64,000 bases of DNA. Source: Cyanidioschyzon merolae (taxonomy: Eukaryota). The stretch is from assembly GCA_000091205.1 (NCBI GenBank), contig AP006497.2; one strand, given 5' to 3'. Below are positions 1,697-44,669 of this stretch, one piece after another. The position numbers and the translations under genes were made by a program. The first letter of the stretch is position 1. The number at the start of each line of letters is the position of its first letter. A model generated the notes under the pieces. It had not been told where the DNA came from. It made no database searches and saw only the letters and a list, made by a program, of their open reading frames with translations.

Positions 1697-3133
1697 ATGG
1701 GAGAGCATCGGGTGAACGTGGCGTTTACGTTGGCACCAGTGCAGCCGCCCTGCTTCTCCAGTTATCTGAATGTGACTCGAGCTTGGAGCGCCGATGCCGC
1801 AAGCCGTGCGACGCGTTTCCGGTATCAGGGTACGTCACCGTACCCGAGACAGCGAACACTGTTTCTGAACTTTTTTCATCGACAGGACATGGTTCCGTGC
1901 GGGTTTGCAGCGCTGCACCCATATCACCGGACCTGCAGGTGGCGCCGATCTTTCATAAAAAGCGCTCGCTCCTGCTGCGCACGAGCGGAAGCTATCGCGC
2001 GCGAACATCCACCAGCATCACATGAACCGCTAGTGCGCTGCAACGGGAAGGCTTCGTGCTTCGGGGCCCGCCGAACACGACCTGGTGTAGCGGGAGCCGC
2101 TGGGGCTCCGCGCTTCCCCGGAGCGCTCAGGGCGCACCCCGTGACCGCGAGTCTCGGCATCGCGCTGGTGCTTTTACTCGCGGCGTTGCACAGTCCGTCT
2201 GTCGCAAGCGCGGCCCCAGTTTTCCACGCCAGCAACCTACAAAGCCTGGGCACTAAGATGCTTCATTCCTTCGCATCGGGTTACGCATCGTCGCTAGCAC
2301 TGGTTTTCTTCTCCGAGCTCGGGGACAAGACTTTCTTCATCACCGCTTTGCTGGCCATGAAGTACCATCGAACGTCGATTTTCATTGGCGCCATTGCGGC
2401 GTTATCCCTGATGACCATGATCTCCGTGGTGCTAGGTCAACTCTTTCACGCGCTTCCACCGCTTGTGACGTCATATATCCCATTCGATGACTGGGCAGCG
2501 TGTGCCCTGCTAATCTTCTTTGGCGTATCAAGCATTCGACAAGGTTTGAAAGCGCGAGCAACACGAGCTGGTCCAGGATCGAAAGCAGAAACACCAACAT
2601 CGCTCGACAGCAGCAGTGCCGGCGCATCCGAGCGATCAGGGACGCTTTCGGATTCGAGGTCTACATCTGCGCAAGCTGAAGAGCTTACGGAAGAGGCAGA
2701 AGCAGCGAAATTCATTCGGGAACGAGAGGAGCGTTTGCTGAGCACCAGAAGCCGCCCGGCCTCTGCAACAAATACGCAGATGAGCGACAAGACGCGCGAG
2801 CATCCCCGTCTGAGCCAGGCAGGTGCCGCGCTAGCCGCCATAGCGATGCCGCTAGCATCACATGCGCAGCTCGCTGCTGTCGTCGAAGCGTTCACGCTCG
2901 TCTTTCTCGCGGAATGGGGTGATCGCAGCATGCTCGCCACGATCGCGCTCTCTGCAGCAAAGAATCCTTTTGGAGTAACGGCCGGGGCGATCAGCGGACA
3001 TCTGGTCGCTTCACTCCTGGCCATTCTTGGCGGAAGTGTTCTCGGGCGATACTTTAGCGAGCGCTTCGTTTCCCTAGTCAGCGGCGGGCTGTTCATCGTC
3101 TTTGCCGTCATGACTTTGCTTGGAGTTTTCTAA
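1697..3133 (+). CDS. GDT1: GDT1/TMEM165 (UPF0016) family Ca2+/Mn2+/H+ transporter
   Basis: Two copies of the family signature E-x-G-D-(K/R)-(T/S) are present: [18 protein letters not shown] and [24 protein letters not shown] long acidic Ser-rich central loop separates two hydrophobic halves. ATG at 1697 checked; the first ~190 aa are not typical for the family, so the real start may lie further downstream. Confidence 0.8.
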
Positions 3134-3832
3134 GCGATGAAAATCGTGGTGCAAGTGGCGAGTATGCGCTGGGCATACGAATCGAGCGGGTCGCAAACAA
3201 AAAAACCGACTCGTTAGTCGCTTCAGGTCGGCAGCTATTTGTTGAAGCTTTTTGTGTAACATGGATGCCGGTATCAAACATGTTGTCGAGTGTAGGGCTT
3301 TTCGCCCGTTTCGAGCTTGCGCTGTGCTATAAGCTAACGTATGCATGGATCAAAATTTTTTATATGGGCGAAATCAGCGATGCATCTGGTCGCTGAGCCC
3401 GTACCATACCTATGTTGCCACTTGAGTGCATTAGGAAAGGTTTCTGCCTACGTCTACGTCAGTCCCATGATGCGACGACGGATGCATTCGCCTGCAGGTG
3501 CTCTCATATCGGCTACTCGGGATGCTCACGCCATGGCGCAGCGAACGTCTTTGAACAAAGCACGGGCACCGTTGCAGCGCATGCTCGTTACCTATAGTGG
3601 AAACCTCACCCCGGTAAACTCGACCTGTTGTTTGCGTGCTGCCGCCAAATCCGAGAGACACGGGAGCGACCTCGCTCACCCCTGTGAAGCATGTATGCAT
3701 CTTGCTATGGAGGAACTTCCCCCGTCCAAACAGAGAATAGAAGCTCCAGTAAACTGCGGTACGGGCAATGCACTTCTCGCCAGGATCAGTCGTCGCGACC
3801 GCCTTTTTCCACGCCAGTCTCCTGAGGTTGTA

Positions 3833-5035
3833 TCATCGGGGAGCAGGGCGGCGGGATGCCTTCCTAGCCAGTCCGTGCTGTTGCGCTTGGAGTGTCCCTA
3901 TTTCTGCGAGATCTGCAGGCGCTTGCCAGTACAAAGGATTGCGCTCCAGAATGCCCCGTAGAATCGGGGATAATATGGAGTGCTTCGCGGCTTGCGCATC
4001 GACTCTTCTTCCGCGCAGCAGCAAGAGACATTTGTTATGAACACCTAATCCGGCCCAGGACGGGCAGTCACCGACCTTGATATGCTCCATGGATGCGGCA
4101 GCATCGGCTCTGTCATCCGCCCAATCTAGATTTGACTGCTTCTGCACCTGTTCTGCTGCGACTTTGTGCCAGGAGCGCATCCACCACCAGGGAGAGGGCA
4201 ACCGCAGCACGCGCTTCCAGGCTGGTACGCTGGGCGGCTCCGCTGGATGGATCTCATAGAGTTCAAATGCACCGCTAGCAAACGGGGTGCGCGATCTTGT
4301 CAGAGGTCGAACGTAAAGCGATAGTCGCAGGGTATTCTCGGACGCAAGTGGACGCGTGGACGGCCAAGCCGTTGCCCGCGAGTCGATGCGCTGTTTCCTA
4401 GACCGTTCAAAACGCGTCGAGTCCGACTCGGGCGTGAGGCTGGCTACCAGCTGCCTCGCGTTACCGCTACTGTCGCCTTGCTCGGCAACCAGTTTGAACG
4501 TGCCACTTGCATCGTGCACAAACGTCAAAACCTGATAAGGGTAGGCCAGCAGGAATGCAGCGCCCTCGCGACACCACTTGACTGCGTGGATGTGGTCGGT
4601 ATCGTCGATACGCTGCAAGTCGTTTCCCGCGGCACCAAGCGTGCGACTTGTTCGCACTGGTCTAAAAGCGAACAGCTTTCGACAGAGAACCGTCTGGGAG
4701 GCAAGCGGTGCCGTTGCACCAGAGCGAGCAGCAGTCACCAAGGGCGACTGTGACGCAGCGAGCACGCGACTCGTTTCGAAACCCTCCACGCGGGCGATCA
4801 AAGCACCCGAGCTCAGGTTGAATAGCTCACCCGAGTACGCCCAGTGAACAGTGCTTTCGTTGTGGTTTGGATGAAAGCGACGTCGCAGAAACGTGTTCCA
4901 GGAGTCTGCTCGTCTACGAGAAAGCGGCAGCGTCTCGCTCTTATGAGGTTCCGTTGGTGCCGTTGCAGACGGTGAGGTTGGGGTTGGTTCAGCGGCTTGC
5001 GCAACGATCAAGCTCGGTTTTAGGCCTTTAGTCAT
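3833..5035 (-). CDS. Hypothetical protein (no recognisable domain); N-terminal poly-Leu region encoded by a (CTG)n run
   Basis: The 431-aa ORF on the track starts at a GTG (5128). The first in-frame ATG is at 5035. No family motif recognised. Long ORFs are common in GC-rich DNA, so this is uncertain. Confidence 0.35.
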   Translation of the reverse strand: MTKGLKPSLIVAQAAEPTPTSPSATAPTEPHKSETLPLSRRRADSWNTFLRRRFHPNHNESTVHWAYSGELFNLSSGALIARVEGFETSRVLAASQSPLVTAARSGATAPLASQTVLCRKLFAFRPVRTSRTLGAAGNDLQRIDDTDHIHAVKWCREGAAFLLAYPYQVLTFVHDASGTFKLVAEQGDSSGNARQLVASLTPESDSTRFERSRKQRIDSRATAWPSTRPLASENTLRLSLYVRPLTRSRTPFASGAFELYEIHPAEPPSVPAWKRVLRLPSPWWWMRSWHKVAAEQVQKQSNLDWADDRADAAASMEHIKVGDCPSWAGLGVHNKCLLLLRGRRVDAQAAKHSILSPILRGILERNPLYWQAPADLAEIGTLQAQQHGLARKASRRPAPR

Positions 5036-27357: not shown

Positions 27358-27667
27358 GAACGCCTCACATCAGCACGAATAGAGCCTAGGTACGTCATGA
27401 AACGAACGCCTAAAGCCCTGAACGCCTCACATCAGCACGAATAGAGCCTAGGTACGTCATGAAACGAACGCCTAAAGCCCTGAACGCCTCACATCAGCAC
27501 GAATAGAGCCTAGGTACGTCATGAAACGAACGCCTAAAGCCCTGAACGCCTCACATCAGCACGAATAGAGCCTAGGTACGTCATGAAACGAACGCCTAAA
27601 GCCCTGAACGCCTCACATCAGCACGAATAGAGCCTAGGTACGTCATGAAACGAACGCCTAAAGCCCT
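27358..27667. repeat. Tandem repeat, 62-bp unit x 5.0, near-identical copies
   Basis: The unit gaacgcctcacatcagcacgaatagagcctaggtacgtcatgaaacgaacgcctaaagccct is repeated head-to-tail, starting at 27358, 27420, 27482, 27544 and 27606. It overlaps the stop codon and 3' end of the 27658-28650 ORF. Confidence 0.95.
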
Positions 27668-28650
27668 GTGGCTTTCGACGTGCCCTCTCGTTGGGTATTT
27701 CGGCCGCGATTCCATTCCCCGTCAAGGTCGTAGAGACGCAACTCCAGCGCTCTGTTTCGTCTTTGCAATGTTTCCACCTCGTCAGAGAGGTGAAGTGACT
27801 TGAGCTTGAGGGCTTCGTAGGCCTCTCGCGTCGCATCCAAGGCTGTCTCAAGCTCTAGAACTCGCTTTCGGAGCGACTGCACTTGGTACTCAAGTCGCTC
27901 TCGTTCCGACTCTGCATTGGCGGCTGCGACTTTGGTCTCGACCAGCAAGCGCTCATAATCTTCTAAAGACGAAGGTTCCACACGTAAAAGTTCAGCGATA
28001 GACAGGCGCTCGACTTGTTCGGTATCCCAGTTCCCGGTTGATGACGTGGCTGGCGTCGGGCGTTGGCGTGACTCGTCGACACGGTCGTGCTGCAGCGTGT
28101 CCCCAGAAGTCCCGATACTGAGGTGTTCAGAACAAGTCACCAGCGACTTTGCCGGAGAGCACGCTTGTTCCGCGACGCGCCTCCGACTTGATGCTTCACG
28201 CGTTTCACCGGGGACAGCTTCCAGCGGCTCTTTTGAGGTGCGGCTCGATGAGCAAGTGTCAGCTGATGCGCAGCCTCTGTCCGTGCCGCCACGCGCTGCC
28301 AAGGCGGCTGTCGTGACTTGCACTCCAGGCAGCGATTCGTCTGTACATTCGTTGCTGAGAGCGTTTGAATTGAGGCCCGTCGCGTGTTCACCTCGCGTTG
28401 CGTCTCGACCGGTGGGGCAGCGCGCACTGGACGCGTCGCTTCCAGCGCTCGTCGACATGGGTAGGCAAGCGACTTTTGCCTTTTCTAAAACCAAAACCGG
28501 TACCGACCAACGGTGCACCCTGGTGCTGGCTAGTGTGTCTCTCGTCGGCTTGAGCAGCACGTTCACACACCGTCTCCACTGTGAGGCACAACGAAGCGCT
28601 TTTCCACGCGTCAACTCTCTGAAACGTCCAGGTAACGCGCACCGATGCAT
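27658..28650 (-). CDS. Hypothetical coiled-coil protein
   Basis: ATG start. The C-terminal ~110 aa show a strong heptad coiled-coil pattern (..RLEYQVQSLRKRVLELETALDATREAYEALKLKSLHLSDEVETLQRRNRALELRLYDL..). The N-terminal half is Ser/Ala/Thr-rich. Confidence 0.45.
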   Translation of the reverse strand: MHRCALPGRFRELTRGKALRCASQWRRCVNVLLKPTRDTLASTRVHRWSVPVLVLEKAKVACLPMSTSAGSDASSARCPTGRDATRGEHATGLNSNALSNECTDESLPGVQVTTAALAARGGTDRGCASADTCSSSRTSKEPLEAVPGETREASSRRRVAEQACSPAKSLVTCSEHLSIGTSGDTLQHDRVDESRQRPTPATSSTGNWDTEQVERLSIAELLRVEPSSLEDYERLLVETKVAAANAESERERLEYQVQSLRKRVLELETALDATREAYEALKLKSLHLSDEVETLQRRNRALELRLYDLDGEWNRGRNTQREGTSKATGL

Positions 28651-29293: not shown

Positions 29294-29680
29294 GCAAGCG
29301 TACGCCGTTCTACTCGATAGATGATAAGCGGATTCCGATGTCTTCCATGATGAAACAGCAAGCGTACGCCGTTCTACTCGATAGATGAGAAACGGATTCC
29401 GATGTCTTCCATGATGAAACAGCAAGCGCGCGCCGTTCTACTCGATCGATGATAAGCGGATTCCGATGTCTTCCATGATGAAACAGCAAGCGTACGCCGT
29501 TCTACTCGATCGATGATAAGCGGATTCCGATGTCTTCCATGATGAAACAGCAAGCGCGCGCCGTTCTACTCGATCGATGATAAGCGGATTCCGATGTCTT
29601 CCATGATGAAACAGCAAGCGCGCGCCGTTCTACTCGATCGATGATAAGCGGATTCCGATGTCTTCCATGATGAAACAAGC
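29294..29680. repeat. Tandem minisatellite, 64-bp unit x ~6
   Basis: Unit gcaagcg[ta/cg]cgccgttctactcgat[a/c]gatgataagcggattccgatgtcttccatgatgaaaca, starting at 29294, 29358, 29422, 29486, 29550 and 29614. The short minus-strand ORFs here (MLFHHGRHRNP...) are created by the repeat. Confidence 0.95.
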
Positions 29681-35144: not shown

Positions 35145-36401
35145 ATGGTGCTTGAGGCGACGATGATCTGCATTGACAACTCTGAATGGATGCGTAACGG
35201 GGATGTTGCGCCCAGTCGCATGGATGCGCAGCTCGACGCTGTGAACCTGCTGTGTAACGTCAAGCTAGACGAGAACCCCGAGAACACTGTCGGCCTCCTG
35301 ACCTTGGCAGGTCTACCCGGTGGTGGTGCACTTTGGACAGCGAATCACAGTGCGAGCGCTGCTGCAGAAGGTCGTCCACGTTGGCTTGGAACCGGCGCGG
35401 TTTGCCGGGTTCTCATCACGCAGACGCGCGATCCCGGAAGGGTTCTCTCTGCAATGCACCAGGTAATCGTGGAGGGTGAAGTGGACTTTATAGGTGGTCT
35501 TCAGAAGGCGCAACTGGCGCTGAAGCACCGCCAGAACCGAAATCAGCGCCAGAGGATCATTTGCTTCATCGCAAGCCCCGTTGCTGCAACCGCGGAAGAG
35601 CTGGTCCAGCTCGGGCGCAACCTGAAGAAGAATAACGTGGCGGTGGATGTGGTACTTTTTGGAAGCGAATGGAGTGAGAATGAGGAGAAAATGAAGGGGT
35701 TTATTCAGAGTGTGAACGTGGACGATAATTCGCACCTGATCACGGTACCGCCGGGTACAGCGCTCTTAGCGGAGGCACTGATGACGACGCCGCTCATGCA
35801 GAGTGAGCAGGCACTCATGGCTGGTGCTGCAGGCTCGGACGCTCGTTTAAGTGGGACTGGTATCGGCGCCTTTTCTGGCGGAGCAGCTGATATAGGCGGC
35901 TTTGGCTTCGATCCGAGCGCGGACCCCGAGCTTGCGCTAGCGCTCCAAATGTCACTGGAGGAAGAACGTAATCGGCAAGCAGCAGCTGCAGCGGGAGCAG
36001 GATCAGGAGCAGATGCTGTCGAGAACAATGCTCCGGGATCATCTTCGATGACAATGGAGGTCGTGAACGATCGTTCACAGGCTGCTGCTGTGGATTCTCG
36101 AACGAGTCTCCAGAGCCGTTCGGAGGCTGGCAGCATTGGCCATCGACCTGATTCCTCCGCTGCCGCAACAGCGGATTCCGAAGTGGCCGAGAGCTCCGAT
36201 CTTGGTAATGCGAACAGTGACATCGTCAATGACGAGGACGAACAAATGGATGAAGAACTTCGTCTCGCCATAGAGCTCTCCAAGCAAGAGGCATCCACCG
36301 GTGGACGCCAGCCGCGATCGAGCTCTGGCCAGGCACTGGCCCCCGAGGACCAGTCTCCGGATGACTCAAAGAAGAAATCTGAGCCTCGTGGTAGCACTTG
36401 A
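35145..36401 (+). CDS. RPN10: 26S proteasome regulatory subunit Rpn10/PSMD4 (VWA domain + two UIMs)
   Basis: The N-terminal VWA matches Rpn10 (MVLEATMICIDNSEWMRNGDVAPSRMDAQLDAVNLLCNVKLDENPENTVGLLTLAG). The two UIMs are DPELALALQMSLEEE and DEELRLAIELSKQE. ATG start verified. Confidence 0.9.
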   Translation: MVLEATMICIDNSEWMRNGDVAPSRMDAQLDAVNLLCNVKLDENPENTVGLLTLAGLPGGGALWTANHSASAAAEGRPRWLGTGAVCRVLITQTRDPGRVLSAMHQVIVEGEVDFIGGLQKAQLALKHRQNRNQRQRIICFIASPVAATAEELVQLGRNLKKNNVAVDVVLFGSEWSENEEKMKGFIQSVNVDDNSHLITVPPGTALLAEALMTTPLMQSEQALMAGAAGSDARLSGTGIGAFSGGAADIGGFGFDPSADPELALALQMSLEEERNRQAAAAAGAGSGADAVENNAPGSSSMTMEVVNDRSQAAAVDSRTSLQSRSEAGSIGHRPDSSAAATADSEVAESSDLGNANSDIVNDEDEQMDEELRLAIELSKQEASTGGRQPRSSSGQALAPEDQSPDDSKKKSEPRGST

Positions 36402-36526: not shown

Positions 36527-37549
36527 TTACCGCCGCCGCCGCTGCTGCCGACGACGACGTCGACGTTGCCGCGGCTTTCGTATACGTGCATCAAAGTCGT
36601 TAAACAGTGGCCCTGCGGCAGCAGCAGCAGCAGCAGCAGTAGCAGCGGCACTGGTGATGACTGCGGTATGCAGTCTACGAACGCAGCCGTACATGAATCG
36701 GCGCCCATAAGGTGGCACCTCTACTCTCGACGCCAGCTTGAACAAGCGCTCGGCGAGTTGCTGACGATGCTCTGGTTGAGACAAGTACACGAGCTGGTCT
36801 CGTTGATTTGGTACTGCAGCTGGGGCACGTACCAGCGGTTCCCACAGTCTCTCAAAGGCGCGTCGCATAAGTACTTTGCGGTTGCGCTGCTGCGTGGCGC
36901 TAGCGCGCTCCATCGGCGCAAGATATAGACGTAAGAATGGTTGTACGGCGATATCAACCGGGTGCGTTGAATCAGTGTCCAGGGTAAGTGATTCAAGGCC
37001 GCCCGGCGCTTGACAGAGCACCAGTTCGAGCCACTTGTCGCAGACGTGCAACGCCATCCCGAGTGCTGCGGGTGCCGCTTCGAGATCCAGGTCCGCGCTT
37101 GTCCCTACCAGTGGTTCGAATACGACACGTTCCACAATGCCGGTGAGACGTCGCCAGTGGTCCACCTGATCCACACATAAAGAGGTTGCGGCGCTGAGCG
37201 ACCTGTTTAGCAACGCATAGTACTTGTCCAGCCGTAAATGGTCAATTTCTATCCAGTATCGACAAATTGTCTCCCACATGACCTCAAAATAGAGCCAGTT
37301 GTCCACCGCGAGCCCCAACCACGAACAGAGTCTTTCGAGGGTCCAGTTGATCGCGGACGGTGTGTCGGCGAACCAGAGTGTGTAGTAGAGCGCTCGCCAG
37401 ACCCTTCGCATACCTTTCGGAGAGAGTGGTGCTGGTTCACGTTGGCACAACATCCGCTCTACTTTACGAAGTGCTCGGTTCCGCACTTGCGCATCGGAAG
37501 ATGCCAGTTGCCGCGCGAGCGCTGTCTCTGCAGTTCCTGCGACCGCCAT
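36527..37549 (-). CDS. RRP1: Nop52/RRP1 family nucleolar rRNA-processing protein
   Basis: Matches the Nop52 signature block (LASSDAQVRNRALRKV..VWRALYYTLWFADTPSAIN..YFEVMWETICRYWIEIDHLRLDKYYALLN). Ends in a poly-Arg nuclear-type basic tail (RKPRQRRRRRRQQRRRR). ATG start. Confidence 0.8.
   Translation of the reverse strand: MAVAGTAETALARQLASSDAQVRNRALRKVERMLCQREPAPLSPKGMRRVWRALYYTLWFADTPSAINWTLERLCSWLGLAVDNWLYFEVMWETICRYWIEIDHLRLDKYYALLNRSLSAATSLCVDQVDHWRRLTGIVERVVFEPLVGTSADLDLEAAPAALGMALHVCDKWLELVLCQAPGGLESLTLDTDSTHPVDIAVQPFLRLYLAPMERASATQQRNRKVLMRRAFERLWEPLVRAPAAVPNQRDQLVYLSQPEHRQQLAERLFKLASRVEVPPYGRRFMYGCVRRLHTAVITSAAATAAAAAAAAGPLFNDFDARIRKPRQRRRRRRQQRRRR
36601..36645. repeat. (CAG)n trinucleotide run
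   Basis: gcagcagcagcagcagcagtagcagc, between the Rpn10 and Nop52 genes. Confidence 0.85.
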
Positions 37550-37834
37550 AGTGCTGAACAGCGTTGCAGCGTCCGCTGGGAAGAGACCGGGATTCGAGTC
37601 TCGCGTTACGCACCCGCTCCGGAACTATTCAAGAATATCTCGAGAGCTTGGTGGCTAGTTGCCCGATCCAAACGGCTCAGTTGGTCCAAGTGAAGCGCAG
37701 AAACAACCAGGGTTTCGAGTAAACCAGCACCGTGTCGTTTGGCGGCGGTGTCGCTGGCGTCGCCGCGTTCTCAAGAAGCCGGTTGTTGTCTCGCGGCTCG
37801 TTGGGTTCGTGCCACACCAGCACCAGTTGCCGGG

Positions 37835-38815
37835 GCTGGGGCGTCATCCAGACTCGTGGATGACTTGCGGGTTTACCAGGTGGCTACGATAGCCAAAAGC
37901 TGTTCACTATGCTATTCGGGAACGCTCAGCTAAAACGGTTGCTGCAGGTGTTCCACGAGATGGAACGCTTTGGCGCGGCTGGGGCGTCATCCATACTCGT
38001 GGATGACTTCCGGGTTTACCAGGTGGCTACGATAGCCAAAAGCTGTTGACTTTGCTATTCGGGAACGCTCAGCTAAAACGGTTGCTGCAGGTGTTCCACG
38101 AGCTGGAACGCTTTGGCGCGGCTGGGGCGTCATCCAGACTCGTGGATGACTTCCGGGTTTACCAGGTGGCTACGATAGCCAAAAGCTGTTCACTACGCTA
38201 TTCGGGAACGCTCAGCTAAAACGGTTGCTGCAGGTGTTCCACGAGCTGGAACGCTTTGGCGCGGCTGGGGCGTCATCCAGACTCGTGGATGACTTCCGGG
38301 TTTACCAGGTGGCTACGATAGCCAAAAGCTGTTCACTACGCTATTCGGGAACGCTCAGCTAAAACGGTTGCTGCAGGTGTTCCACGAGCTGGAACGCTTT
38401 GGCGCGGCTGGGGCGTCATCCAGACTCGTGGATGATTTCCGGGTTTACCAGGTGGCTACGATAGCCAAAAGCTGTTGACTTTGCTATTCGGGAACGCTCA
38501 GCTAAAACGGTTGCTGCAGGTGTTCCACGAGATGGAACGCTTTGGCGCGGCTGGGGCGTCATCCAGACTCGTGGATGACTTCCGGGTTTACCAGGTGGCT
38601 ACGATAGCCAAAAGCTGTTCACTATGCTATTCGGGAACGCTCAGCTAAAACGGTTGCTGCAGGTGTTCCACGAGCTGGAACGCTTTGGCGCGGCTGGGGC
38701 GTCATCCAGACTCGTGGATGACTTCCGGGTTTACCAGGTGGCTACGATAGCCAAAAGCTGTTCACTATGCCATTCGGGAACGCTCAGCTAAAACGGTTGC
38801 TGCAGGTGTTCCAGG
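37835..38815. repeat. Satellite-like tandem array, 143-bp unit x ~6.9, >97% identity between copies
   Basis: Unit gctggggcgtcatccagactcgtggatgacttccgggtttaccaggtggctacgatagccaaaagctgttcactatgctattcgggaacgctcagctaaaacggttgctgcaggtgttccacgagctggaacgctttggcgcg. Copies start at 37835, 37978, 38121, 38264, 38407, 38550 and 38693. Each unit has a perfect 8-bp inverted repeat (gtcatcca/tggatgac) around a 6-nt spacer. Confidence 0.95.
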
Positions 38816-40605
38816 CGATGCGGCTCGTGAGCGTTCACGGCGGCGGCTGAGCGGCTTGGACCTTCGTTTCGTCCAGCAGTGTCGTTCAATTGGATTTGTT
38901 TGCGCAGTTCAGAGAGCAGTGATGTCAAAGCGAGTCTCATTTCCCGAAAAGCATTGCGATCCGCATTGATGCGGAAGAGTGTTTTGCCACTTGCAGAGCC
39001 TTTTTCTAGCCAGCACCAACCGGCGCTGTGCTCGCAAAGCTGTTGCAGCTGTTGACGAGCATCCTCGTAGCTTTGAGGAGCACTATCGTGTTGTTGACAC
39101 AGAAAAGCGGTCAACTGGTCAAGTTCTACAGATCGGCGAGGTCTACCCAATACGCATGGCGTCTGAAAGAAGCTGTAAACGAGGTCTGCTGCGTGTATGA
39201 GCCGGCGAATATTGAGGCACGTTTCCTCATGACGCCGACTGGATTCTATGCAGTCCCGCTCTGCCGCTCGATCGCGAATGCGTTGAATGAGCTCCGCTGG
39301 TAAGCACCCGTCGATTTCGAGTGTAGCAGAGAGGGCGTCATTCGTGGACCGCAATACAGCGTTGTCTCTTTGCATTCGTTGATCACGTGAATCGACAGTG
39401 GAAACCTGGGAGAAAGACGCTGGGTGCGACTTGCCGGACGCCGACGACTCTGTGACAGGCGATGCGTAACCGACAAGTTCAGGGCTCTGCATGGACGCGC
39501 AACCGTCTACGTCCATTTCTCGACGGAAACTGGCCCCGGGTCGTGGCGCCGACGCAACCGGCGCCTGTGGGGCGCGCTTCCACGGGGTATGCTCTCCGAC
39601 CAACTCGTCTGCCGGAGAAAAATCATCATTCGTCCGCTTTCGCTTTGCGAATGGTTGTGGTGGCGTTGGTGGTACTGTATCGTGGCTCATGTCCTGGGAA
39701 TTGCATCCATCCGCGAAGCGTCGCTTCCGATGAGCGTGTTGCTGTGGCGAATAGGCTGTAGCGTTCGAATCGCCTTCGAGGATCGGCTTCCCGCACGAAG
39801 GCACATCCAGCGGTTGTGATGCGCTTCGGCGCATTGCTTCATCTGAACAAGCAGGTGCGGGCCGTTCCATGGCCTCGAGACGCTCACGAAGCAGCGCGCG
39901 ACGCTTCATAATGCCATAGGCGTCACCGAAGCGGGTAACTTGGACCGAATCCGCTGAGGATTCCGTTCGCATTGAGGAGAACTGCTCCCGCAGCTCAATG
40001 CACAAGTCGGTTTCGCCAGGTCCGAAACGGTGAATCATAAATACCTCTGGAACTAGCCCCAGTAACTGATCCAGTCGCTGCCTTGTGAGCTCCCGCCGAC
40101 ACTTCCACTGAACCACAGCTTGAACTTGCTCGAATGTAGGTCGTGCTTGGCGAGCCCGGAGCAGTAAGCGTGCACTCTCAATGCCATCCATGATTTCGAG
40201 CAACGGCACCCAGTCTTTTTCTGTTACTTTGGTCCTGCATCCAGTGACGGGCGCACTCCAGTGCTCCTGATCCTCGTTGCAAGACCTCGGAGCAGCAATC
40301 GTGTCGTCGTTGCGCACTCCAGTTGTTGAACCATCGAAGGCGAAAACGCTGGACCCAACAGCCTCGGAACAGTTTCGTTCGGAAACTCCAGAAGCAGCGC
40401 TCAGAGCACGACTTGTGGTTTCTGCTCTATCAGCGGCATCCGAAGCCTCCAGTGTCGTCAAGCTCGCAGACCGCTGAGCGGTGTGTGGCTCCTCAGGCCA
40501 GCCCCTGGGGCTCGTTTGCAAATCCCCGTGCTCAGTTTCCTTTCCATTGCGGAATAGAGCATGAACACGCCTCTGCTTCACATTCGAAAAGTAGTTTGAG
40601 ATCAT
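38788..40605 (-). CDS. CDT1: CDT1-like DNA replication licensing factor (divergent)
   Basis: 605 aa with an ATG start. The central block LLLRARQARPTFEQVQAVVQWKCRRELTRQRLDQLLGLVPEVFMIHRF parallels the metazoan CDT1 core (..[41 protein letters not shown]). The N-terminus is Ser/Ala-rich and disordered. The 3' end of the ORF runs into the last partial 143-bp repeat copy. Confidence 0.5.
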   Translation of the reverse strand: MISNYFSNVKQRRVHALFRNGKETEHGDLQTSPRGWPEEPHTAQRSASLTTLEASDAADRAETTSRALSAASGVSERNCSEAVGSSVFAFDGSTTGVRNDDTIAAPRSCNEDQEHWSAPVTGCRTKVTEKDWVPLLEIMDGIESARLLLRARQARPTFEQVQAVVQWKCRRELTRQRLDQLLGLVPEVFMIHRFGPGETDLCIELREQFSSMRTESSADSVQVTRFGDAYGIMKRRALLRERLEAMERPAPACSDEAMRRSASQPLDVPSCGKPILEGDSNATAYSPQQHAHRKRRFADGCNSQDMSHDTVPPTPPQPFAKRKRTNDDFSPADELVGEHTPWKRAPQAPVASAPRPGASFRREMDVDGCASMQSPELVGYASPVTESSASGKSHPASFSQVSTVDSRDQRMQRDNAVLRSTNDALSATLEIDGCLPAELIQRIRDRAAERDCIESSRRHEETCLNIRRLIHAADLVYSFFQTPCVLGRPRRSVELDQLTAFLCQQHDSAPQSYEDARQQLQQLCEHSAGWCWLEKGSASGKTLFRINADRNAFREMRLALTSLLSELRKQIQLNDTAGRNEGPSRSAAAVNAHEPHRLEHLQQPF

Positions 40606-43574: not shown

Positions 43575-44669
43575 CTAGACATGTTCACGGCAGACTCGCG
43601 ATGATGCATTCGCAAAGGTCTCCGGATACGCTCGAGCTAGACGACACAAGACCGACGCTGCGCCAAGGTTTGCCCGTAGAAACGCTCGATCCACATCATG
43701 CTCGCCCTCGACTACACCATACAGATCTGCCTGCCAATCCTCTACGCAACGTCCTGCAAGAACCGCCTCCTCTGTGCTAATCCTTCCCTGCTGTATGTTA
43801 AGGCCGATGATTGCCGACTTGCTCAAGCATGCTATAGAATGAAGCGCGACTAAGGACCATAGGTCAAGTTGATCAAGATACTCTTGCATCCTTTGTAAAG
43901 CGAAATCACTTTGAATACCCGCAGTCACGAGCTCCGCGGTGACCTTAATCGGAACGCCGAGCACCTGCGAAGCGTTCTCACGTAAAGGACGCCATAGCCG
44001 TTCCTGTCTCGCGAGCAAACTTGCATGAGCGTGTTCCAGAAAACAAAGTGAATCGGCGCCAAAATGCTCCAAAATCTCTCGTACGTACAGGGCTCGGCAA
44101 GAGTCATCCACAGACAGACTCTTTGCCAGCAGCCGTGTCAGCGGCATTAATGCGGGACGTAAACGCTCGGACTGCCGATCCCATTCATAGAGCAGTGCAA
44201 GGGCCAATGGGAGCGTTGGAGCCAATAACGGCTGTTGTGGACTCAAGCATAAGGTTTTGCCGTCCACCTTCAGGCAGTATACGTGCTCCGCAGGTCTTCC
44301 GATTTCTGATGAAATCAACGCAGCAACTTCAACTTTCTTCCAAAAACGCGGCGGTCCCACTCCTGACCAGTTCGTTCGCAGCGTCCGCTCAACGTTGAGC
44401 CCGCGGGTATCCGAAGCAATCTGCTGGAGCAGTTGAGGGCGCTGCTCCTGTCCAGTTTGCTGCTTAACAGAGTCGTGCACATTTTTCGTTGAAAAGCTGA
44501 TCGCTGGCGTGTACACAGACAAGGTCGCGCGAGCGCTACCGGTTTTTGTGCAACTTGTGTGGCTCGAAAGGAGCCAATCGTCGCCAAGACGTGTTCCTAG
44601 CAAACAGTGGAACCTAACGGGCACCACGTGCTGTTTCAGCCCTTTCAGACAGCCCCGAATACGATTCAT
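43575..44669 (-). CDS. ATP12: ATP synthase mitochondrial F1 complex assembly factor 2 (ATP12/ATPAF2)
   Basis: Matches the ATP12 pattern: PPRFWKKVEVAALISSEIG..YCLKVDGKTLCLSPQQPLLAPTLPLALALLYEWDRQSERLRPALMPLTRLLAKSLSVDD (KRFYK..V.LDGR.LKTP..L.VP...LA.AIA.EW..Q...I.P..MPLT.L). ATG start. Confidence 0.75.
   Translation of the reverse strand: MNRIRGCLKGLKQHVVPVRFHCLLGTRLGDDWLLSSHTSCTKTGSARATLSVYTPAISFSTKNVHDSVKQQTGQEQRPQLLQQIASDTRGLNVERTLRTNWSGVGPPRFWKKVEVAALISSEIGRPAEHVYCLKVDGKTLCLSPQQPLLAPTLPLALALLYEWDRQSERLRPALMPLTRLLAKSLSVDDSCRALYVREILEHFGADSLCFLEHAHASLLARQERLWRPLRENASQVLGVPIKVTAELVTAGIQSDFALQRMQEYLDQLDLWSLVALHSIACLSKSAIIGLNIQQGRISTEEAVLAGRCVEDWQADLYGVVEGEHDVDRAFLRANLGAASVLCRLARAYPETFANASSRVCREHV

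Follow-up and report, generated by a model that had tools for sequence, protein, structure and literature searches.

The 64,000-nucleotide stretch of Cyanidioschyzon merolae 10D chromosome 15 considered here (contig AP006497.2, assembly GCA_000091205.1; hereafter the window) contains a run of nearly identical 143-bp units, and the question raised by this locus is where such an array came from and whether it serves either of the genes beside it. The array lies between the stop codon of CMO238C, a putative CDT1-like gene, and CMO237C, which encodes a protein of the Nop52/RRP1 family. Both genes are on the minus strand, and the array is downstream of CMO238C and upstream of CMO237C (hereafter Nop52). 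The structure of the unit, its absence from relatives and its rearrangement between strains indicate that the array is probably a locus-specific minisatellite that arose by tandem amplification of the CMO238C 3' end.

The array and the 3' end of CMO238C

A first-pass annotation of the window had placed a satellite with a 143-bp period at 37835-38815. Tandem Repeats Finder confirmed the period and returned limits within 8 nt of these, with 6.9 copies at 37827-38813, 97% matches, 0% indels and a score of 1876. A gap-free repeat finder gave a start-to-start spacing of exactly 143 throughout the array. The total length is 987 bp, and the seventh copy tracks the consensus for 129 nt before passing into unique sequence. 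The array is thus a head-to-tail tandem repeat whose unit falls within the range of roughly 10-200 bp that is typical of minisatellites. Its GC content is 55.7%, compared with a mean of 55.1% for the window. In the register from 37827, any two of the six full units differ at 0-7 sites, with a mean of 3.8 (2.66%), and units 3 and 4 are identical. The diagnostic variants that had been read earlier, tcactatgc / tgactttgc / tcactacgc and cacgagctgg / cacgagatgg, are exactly as quoted. The features of the array and of the two genes that border it are as follows.

37827..38813, minus strand (sense with CMO238C): 143-bp minisatellite (Tandem Repeats Finder, gap-free repeat finder, unit-by-unit comparison)
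37827, 37970, 38113, 38256, 38399, 38542 and 38685, plus-strand positions: unit starts; unit 7 is partial, 129 nt
38788..38813, minus strand: overlap of the array with the CMO238C coding sequence, comprising the last seven codons (EHLQQPF), TAG and 2 nt of the preceding codon, 26 nt in all (six-frame translation against the C-terminus of the open reading frame)
37872..38733, minus strand: seven sense-strand GUAAA motifs, with the U of UAAA at 38733, 38590, 38447, 38304, 38161, 38018 and 37875 (motif scan)
37843..38722, no strand assigned: seven copies of a 22-nt palindrome, GTCATCCA-N6-TGGATGAC, at 37843, 37986, 38129, 38272, 38415, 38558 and 38701 (pattern search)
37550..37826, minus strand: unique spacer from the array to the Nop52 ATG, holding the probable Nop52 transcript start at ~37670-37680
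38788..40605, minus strand: CMO238C, 605 aa, BAM81585, weakly CDT1-like (open reading frame list; exact match to the 10D protein)
36527..37549, minus strand: CMO237C, Nop52/RRP1 family (Pfam Nop52, E=1.5e-31; exact match to BAM81584; the name CMO237C is assigned from its position in the gene number series)

The origin of the unit is indicated by its overlap with CMO238C. The stop codon of this gene is at 38788-38790 and the array runs to 38813, so that the last partial copy overlaps the 3' end of the CDT1-like open reading frame, as the first-pass annotation had reported. These 26 nt of the gene recur in every unit, with the sequence VEHLQQPF followed by a stop found once per unit, compared with RLEHLQQPF and a stop at the end of the reading frame itself. 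Because EHLQQPF and the stop are present in each unit, the unit is a copy of the last seven codons of CMO238C, its TAG and 119 nt of its 3' flank. It is not a protein-coding repeat, since all six frames of every unit contain stops and 143 equals 3 x 47 + 2.

At the other end, the annotation had described the array as filling the intergenic space. Instead, the array stops short of the Nop52 ATG by 277 nt of unique sequence (37550-37826). Nor is there support for the suggestion that the unit approximates a nucleosome, as 143 bp does not reach the length of a nucleosome core with its linker.

Each unit also carries a candidate signal for 3'-end formation. The poly(A) signal of C. merolae is UAAA (PMC8831791; PMC6413133). 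It accompanies 93% of primary sites, cleavage follows 3-35 nt downstream (mean 17 nt), and more than one poly(A) site is used by 63% of genes (PMC8831791). Within the 1,238-nt spacer from the CMO238C stop to the Nop52 ATG, a motif scan found sense-strand UAAA only once per unit and none in the 277-nt unique part. The first lies 54 nt after the CMO238C TAG, so the unit has the sequence of a C. merolae polyadenylation module, with UAAA downstream of a stop on the sense strand. The GUAAA of the unit is taken as the candidate poly(A) signal of CMO238C because the gene needs one and the spacer offers no other. The supplement of PMC8831791 does not list CMO238C or CMO237C, and a scan for bacterial-type promoters and terminators was uninformative on this eukaryotic DNA.

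On the sense strand of each unit, the palindrome GTCATCCA-N6-TGGATGAC occupies the interval 7-28 nt after UAAA, inside the predicted cleavage zone. The annotation had noted a perfect 8-bp inverted repeat in every unit, and the repeat is indeed present in seven of seven, perfect in six and with a terminal mismatch in one. A perfect stem of at least 8 bp was obtained in 1.3% of dinucleotide shuffles of the unit (P=0.013 per unit). A pattern search found this palindrome nowhere else within the 64-kb window. Two more hairpins of 6 bp occur in the unit, TGGCTA-CGA-TAGCCA and GTTCCA-CGAGC-TGGAAC, and the unit as a whole folds modestly better than its shuffles, with z scores of -2.0 (sense strand) and -2.4 (plus strand).

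A 14-nt segment, CGAGCTGGAACGCT, is present at 37956-37969 and then at each later junction, and is exclusive to the internal junctions between units. Together with the GTTCCA that precedes it, this segment forms a 6-bp palindrome. The stretch GGAACGCT within it repeats an 8-mer located 43 nt upstream in the unit. When the array boundaries were searched for older degenerate copies or microhomology, the alignments were no better than those of shuffled sequence.

Distribution among lineages and strains

The unit appears to be confined to this locus. A low-stringency blastn search of the window with a dimer of the unit returned only chance matches of 11-17 nt. An exact 22-mer of the invariant core, compared with 241 million metagenome records, matched two contigs from two samples, both of which represent this locus; one spans 119.8 kb and the other breaks off within the array. 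The unit cores had zero matches in prokaryotic genomes and viral contigs. The first-pass annotation had stated that a unit occurring nowhere else and carrying no conserved structure would amount to a private local duplication, and this is effectively what was found. Its proposal that the array is the edge of a larger satellite family, whether subtelomeric or centromeric, is not supported, as no second site was found in the window or among the metagenome contigs, the GC content is average and the array lies ~600 kb into a 903-kb chromosome. At 987 bp and 6.9 copies, with no other site in the window or among the metagenome contigs, it does not have the extent of a satellite family.

CMO228C is located at 592,904 on the 902,900-bp chromosome 15 (PMC7291098). 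As CMO238C is ten gene numbers beyond it, the array is roughly 600 kb into the chromosome, hundreds of kb from either telomere, and is not subtelomeric. The minimum GC content in any 500-bp interval of the window is 44%, away from the array, and no A+T-rich stretch is found near it. Centromeres of C. merolae have been described as short, A+T-rich and free of repeats.

Comparison with other Cyanidiophyceae places the amplification in the C. merolae lineage. A search with the CMO238C protein recovered C. merolae-like sequences with 99% identity and two distant orthologues with 37-38% identity, one of them from Cyanidiococcus yangmingshanensis. The gene order of CDT1-like, Nop52 and convergent RPN10 is kept in both distant lineages, but neither possesses a tandem repeat between the CDT1-like and Nop52 genes. 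The spacers are 365 bp in Cyanidiococcus yangmingshanensis and 265 bp in the other lineage. When six units (858 bp) are subtracted from the 10D spacer, 380 bp remain, which is in the ancestral range. Because the spacers of the relatives are short and free of the array, and because the 10D spacer less six units would be of similar length, the array is an amplification of the C. merolae lineage. The first UAAA after the orthologous stop is found at 67 and 71 nt in the two relatives versus 54 nt in C. merolae. No perfect hairpin of at least 6 bp was found in the orthologous flanks of the two relatives, and the palindrome is thus not a conserved element. In addition, the C-terminal residues of the orthologues are unrelated to EHLQQPF.

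Within the C. merolae lineage, the array differs between strains in its unit order. More than 20 contigs from JGI (Joint Genome Institute), ENA and Logan assemblies were retrieved by exact-protein look-up. The flanks of the environmental contigs are 99.3-100% identical to the window, and all contigs that cross the locus carry the array, with 1.9 copies in each except one with 2.9. The gene-proximal unit has G79/T83/T84 in every environmental contig that reaches CMO238C, as do units 2 and 5 of 10D, whereas the gene-proximal unit of 10D has T84/C87. A unit of the type of 10D unit 7 is internal in one environmental contig (L011). The variants T38, G79/T83/T84, A134, T84 and C87 recur across strains, and the order of the units differs between 10D and the environmental contigs.

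The divergence among units, 2.66%, is about five times that of the flanks between 10D and the environmental strains (0.3-0.6%). Since the units diverge more than the flanks and their variants are shared, an array of several unit types predates the split of the strains and has been reshuffled since. At least one duplication or conversion must be recent, given that units 3 and 4 do not differ. The first-pass annotation had attributed the homogeneity of the array to recent unequal exchange or conversion. Exchange or conversion is supported by the identical neighbours, the mosaic of variants and the changes of order; "recent" holds only in part, as the array is older than the strain split.

Mechanism, transcription and competing explanations

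The amplified 143-bp segment would have comprised the last seven codons of CMO238C, the TAG, a 54-nt 3' untranslated region (UTR), the candidate UAAA, the palindrome and ~55 nt beyond. Such a duplication would be tolerated because the gene-proximal copy preserves the end of the open reading frame and the stop, leaving the protein unchanged. The extra copies lie beyond the stop and leave the reading frame intact, although 143 is no multiple of 3; the same duplication inside the coding region would shift the frame. The extra units would then constitute redundant downstream copies of a 3'-end processing module, so that transcripts escaping the first signal would meet an identical one every 143 nt, and the array lengthens the stretch from CMO238C to the Nop52 promoter by 858 bp. 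Unequal sister-chromatid exchange, replication slippage or gene conversion would have changed the order of the copies, and probably their number, which would explain the variant mosaic and why strains differ. Most likely, the array is neutral.

Several contigs bear on the transcription of this region. A 10D-like C. merolae for which JGI metagenomes and metatranscriptomes exist has been described from Lemonade Creek, Yellowstone (PMC11662350). The Logan contig L009 is flanked on both sides by Illumina adapters. Its ends are near window positions 37680 and 35115, which places them ~131 nt before the Nop52 ATG and ~30 nt before that of RPN10. It was read as RNA-derived because fixed, adapter-bearing ends fit transcript 5' ends and not genomic DNA. 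Two other contigs begin at 37670. From these contig ends, the Nop52 transcript is likely to start at ~37670-37680, and the RPN10 transcript ~30 nt upstream of its ATG. Several independent contigs start ahead of the CMO238C ATG, by 23 or 54-61 nt, while clearly genomic contigs (24-120 kb) run through these positions. On this reading, contig L019 is a CMO238C transcript contig that continues through a collapsed array to window position 37684, 4 nt from the start of L009. Five contigs (L001-L004 and L008) connect CMO238C to Nop52. Transcription thus seems to pass through the array in the sense direction, which would make it part of the CMO238C 3' region or of read-through RNA. The first-pass placement of the array on the "Nop52 promoter side" is right in that it is upstream of Nop52. 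It is imprecise in that the array is the 3' flank of the co-oriented CMO238C and stops ~150 nt short of the probable Nop52 start.

Some of the evidence is at odds with an origin by neutral amplification of a 3'-end module or leaves parts of it less secure. RNA-like contigs extend beyond all seven UAAA signals; these bridging contigs would reflect either weak signals, captured nascent read-through or transcripts initiated within the array. UAAA has a background frequency of 1.68 per kb per strand, at which one per 143 nt is not improbable, and the CMO238C cleavage site is predicted from the position of UAAA. The 8-bp palindrome is somewhat unlikely by chance (P ~0.013) and could mark a protein-binding or structural element, and for this reason neutrality is an assumption. 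CGAGCTGGAACGCT matches neither flank of the array better than chance; the segment might be a templated insertion from the founding event. The single-locus status is strongly suggested rather than proven, its basis being the window and the metagenome contigs. Lastly, the environmental copy numbers of 1.9 and 2.9 are lower bounds, because short-read graphs branch at repeats and short-read assemblies collapse the array. This effect is visible in one Logan contig, which stops exactly 31 nt past the join between the gene-proximal copy and the repeat, the signature of a graph branch at k=31.

The least unlikely of the alternatives is a functional one. The seven poly(A) modules could have been selected as a fail-safe reiterated terminator, which would yield a ladder of 3' ends at 143-nt intervals and shield the Nop52 promoter. 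This would account for the spacer having its only UAAA in each unit and in identical context, for the position of the array directly upstream of the co-oriented Nop52, whose transcript would start ~150 nt beyond, and for the retention of the array in all C. merolae-like strains seen. It would also agree with the use of multiple poly(A) sites by 63% of C. merolae genes (PMC8831791). However, the relatives manage with one module in a spacer of 265-365 bp, RNA-like contigs bridge the whole spacer, and unit order varies freely between strains, as neutral turnover predicts. Moreover, the 62-bp array at the end of CMO232C, described below, has no sense-strand UAAA (by eye), so that reiterated signals are no general feature of such arrays. 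A selected terminator is therefore unlikely. The palindromes might instead act on the downstream gene, with seven sites for a dimeric transcription factor that tunes a gene of ribosome biogenesis. The 8-bp inverted repeat with its 6-nt spacer in every unit, at P ~0.013, and the location of the array 150-1130 nt upstream of the probable Nop52 start would suit such an element. This role for Nop52 is nevertheless very improbable, given that the palindrome occurs nowhere else in the 64-kb window and is absent from the orthologous spacers of the relatives, that a T-to-C change falls inside the stem of the Nop52-proximal copy in most environmental contigs, and that the sequence of the unit clearly comes from the end of CMO238C. 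We know of no factor that matches the palindrome.

Two further possibilities are less likely still. That the array represents one local member of a satellite family spread through the genome, be it centromeric, subtelomeric or dispersed, is suggested by its tandem and homogeneous appearance only; with 6.9 copies, none other in the window, this locus alone in two metagenomes with C. merolae-like genomes, a GC content equal to that of the surroundings and a position ~600 kb into the 903-kb chromosome, such a family is scarcely credible. Clusters of tandem small nucleolar RNA (snoRNA) genes exist in other eukaryotes, and the somewhat better folding of the unit compared with its shuffles (z = -2.0 sense, -2.4 plus strand) would be expected if each unit encoded a small non-coding RNA of this or another kind. 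In contrast, Rfam gave no match in the array when 37000-39500 was searched at E up to 10 or when the whole window was searched at gathering scores, ARAGORN found no transfer RNA in the array, and the canonical C box (RUGAUGA) was not seen by eye in either strand of the unit. As the unit also carries the coding end and stop of CMO238C, and nothing comparable is present at the orthologous site of the relatives, a cluster of RNA genes is equally hard to credit. Amplification of the CMO238C 3' end, in comparison, is consistent with the anatomy of the unit, the restriction of the array to the C. merolae lineage and its rearrangement between strains.

An array of this kind has parallels in other systems. 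The 3' UTR of human SLC6A3/DAT1 contains a 40-bp variable number tandem repeat (VNTR). Like VNTRs of 3' UTRs and flanks, the C. merolae array is a locus-specific, head-to-tail, non-coding repeat just past a stop codon, with a unit of tens to ~150 bp and mosaic variants that are rearranged between individuals or strains. Unlike them, its unit includes the coding end, the stop and a probable poly(A) signal, that is, a whole 3'-end module. The host also differs from the usual cases, as the C. merolae genome is among the most repeat-poor eukaryotic genomes known. The array resembles satellite DNA in being tandem, in the high identity of its units and in a typical unit length. However, it extends for ~1 kb, not tens of kb to Mb, and it occupies a single euchromatic locus of average GC content between two housekeeping genes, with an origin from a gene 3' end. 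It is also similar to the tandem poly(A) sites of C. merolae, in which serial UAAA motifs follow one stop and at least two sites are used in 63% of genes (PMC8831791). While ordinary tandem sites in this organism are unrelated in sequence, here seven nearly identical candidates are spaced at exactly 143 nt, and their use is predicted. Overall, the array is an unremarkable minisatellite, or VNTR of a 3' flank, that owes its neat origin to the stop codon and poly(A) module of a gene. It does not appear in the 2007 complete-genome paper, the 2020 resequencing note or the 2024 dispersed-repeat paper, and a literature search returned no paper on CMO237C or CMO238C.

The practical value of the array is modest. 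It provides a ready polymorphic marker to distinguish C. merolae 10D from environmental 10D-like strains, and it illustrates the collapse of such repeats in short-read assemblies, with 1.9-2.9 copies compared with 6.9 in the finished reference. It is also a natural experiment in which one gene has seven identical modules of stop codon, 3' UTR and poly(A) signal. As homologous recombination is routine in C. merolae, the array could be used to determine cleavage efficiency per site and read-through into the downstream gene.

Other minisatellites and the neighboring genes

The first-pass annotation had held that repeats are otherwise sparse and that the array stands out. The same window contains two more minisatellites, however, of 62 bp x 5 and 64 bp x 6, and a further one was found in Cyanidiococcus yangmingshanensis.

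27358-27668: 62-bp x 5.0 array with 100% identical copies, starting within the end of CMO232C (27658-28650, minus strand), at its last three codons and TAG
29294-29677: 64-bp x 6.0 array with 96% matches, in the 2.9-kb spacer from CMO232C to a LON/RING-finger gene
2766-3053 of contig L013 (Cyanidiococcus yangmingshanensis, JANCYV010000004.1): 96-bp x 3.0 array with 98% matches, 29 nt beyond the stop codon of an L-PSP-family gene on the minus strand (3082-4095)

Both additional arrays in the window are similar to the 143-bp array in being intergenic and highly homogeneous, and in having a copy number that differs between 10D and environmental strains. Like the 143-bp array, the 62-bp array has one end within the final codons and stop of a gene on the minus strand. 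It differs in the complete identity of its copies, its much younger age and its lack of a sense-strand UAAA. The 62-bp sequence is single-copy in environmental strains, represented by the genomic contig L024 and by L025. L024 was assembled at k=141 and would retain two 62-bp copies if they existed. Because the environmental strains carry a single copy, the expansion of the 62-bp unit is confined to the 10D lineage and took place very recently. A pair of GAACGCCT 8-mers was considered as the site of slippage that gave rise to this array, but the idea was dropped, as the 8-mers are 45 nt apart, not 62. The 64-bp array has 3.0 copies in L024. Its unit contains ATGATGA-like motifs without CUGA, and the array had no match in Rfam.

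Three of the four minisatellites in ~87 kb from three lineages (the 143-bp, 62-bp and 96-bp arrays) overlap or abut a stop codon. A rough hand estimate for a tiny sample, assuming random placement within the spacer, gives a probability on the order of 1e-4 to 1e-3 for three such placements together, and should be taken as a lead at most. It is conceivable, if doubtful, that minisatellites of Cyanidiophyceae arise preferentially at gene 3' ends through a mechanism of the termination zone, such as replication-transcription conflict or template switching, and that for CMO238C this would yield seven identical poly(A) modules in a stepwise ladder, with alternative 3' ends at periodic intervals. If the association with stop codons were true genome-wide, it would inform the origin of tandem duplications in a compact, repeat-poor eukaryotic genome.

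Two further genes of the neighborhood are listed below.

35145-36401, plus strand: RPN10 (exact match to the C. merolae 10D protein)
43575-44669, minus strand: ATP12-family assembly factor (exact match to the C. merolae 10D protein)

Nop52 and RPN10 are convergent, with only 125 bp between their stop codons, which makes an overlap of their 3' ends probable. A 56-aa open reading frame was called by JGI on the minus strand at 37677-37847, between the array and Nop52 and overlapping the first unit. It has no Pfam match and is probably spurious.

The assignment of CMO238C as CDT1-like is plausible but unproven. The Pfam families CDT1 and CDT1_C match weakly in CMO238C and in both orthologues, in the expected order and below the curated cut-offs. 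The label derives from these sub-threshold matches, since a profile of CMO238C and the two orthologues matched no PDB sequence. The N-terminus of CMO238C (40576-40605) reads M-[IL]-[ST]-[NQ]-Y-F-x-N-V-K-x-[KR]-R-V and is near-invariant across the three orthologues, which are 38% identical overall. This motif may resemble the PIP-box degron at the N-terminus of animal Cdt1, a likeness that, if true, would strengthen the CDT1 assignment of CMO238C.

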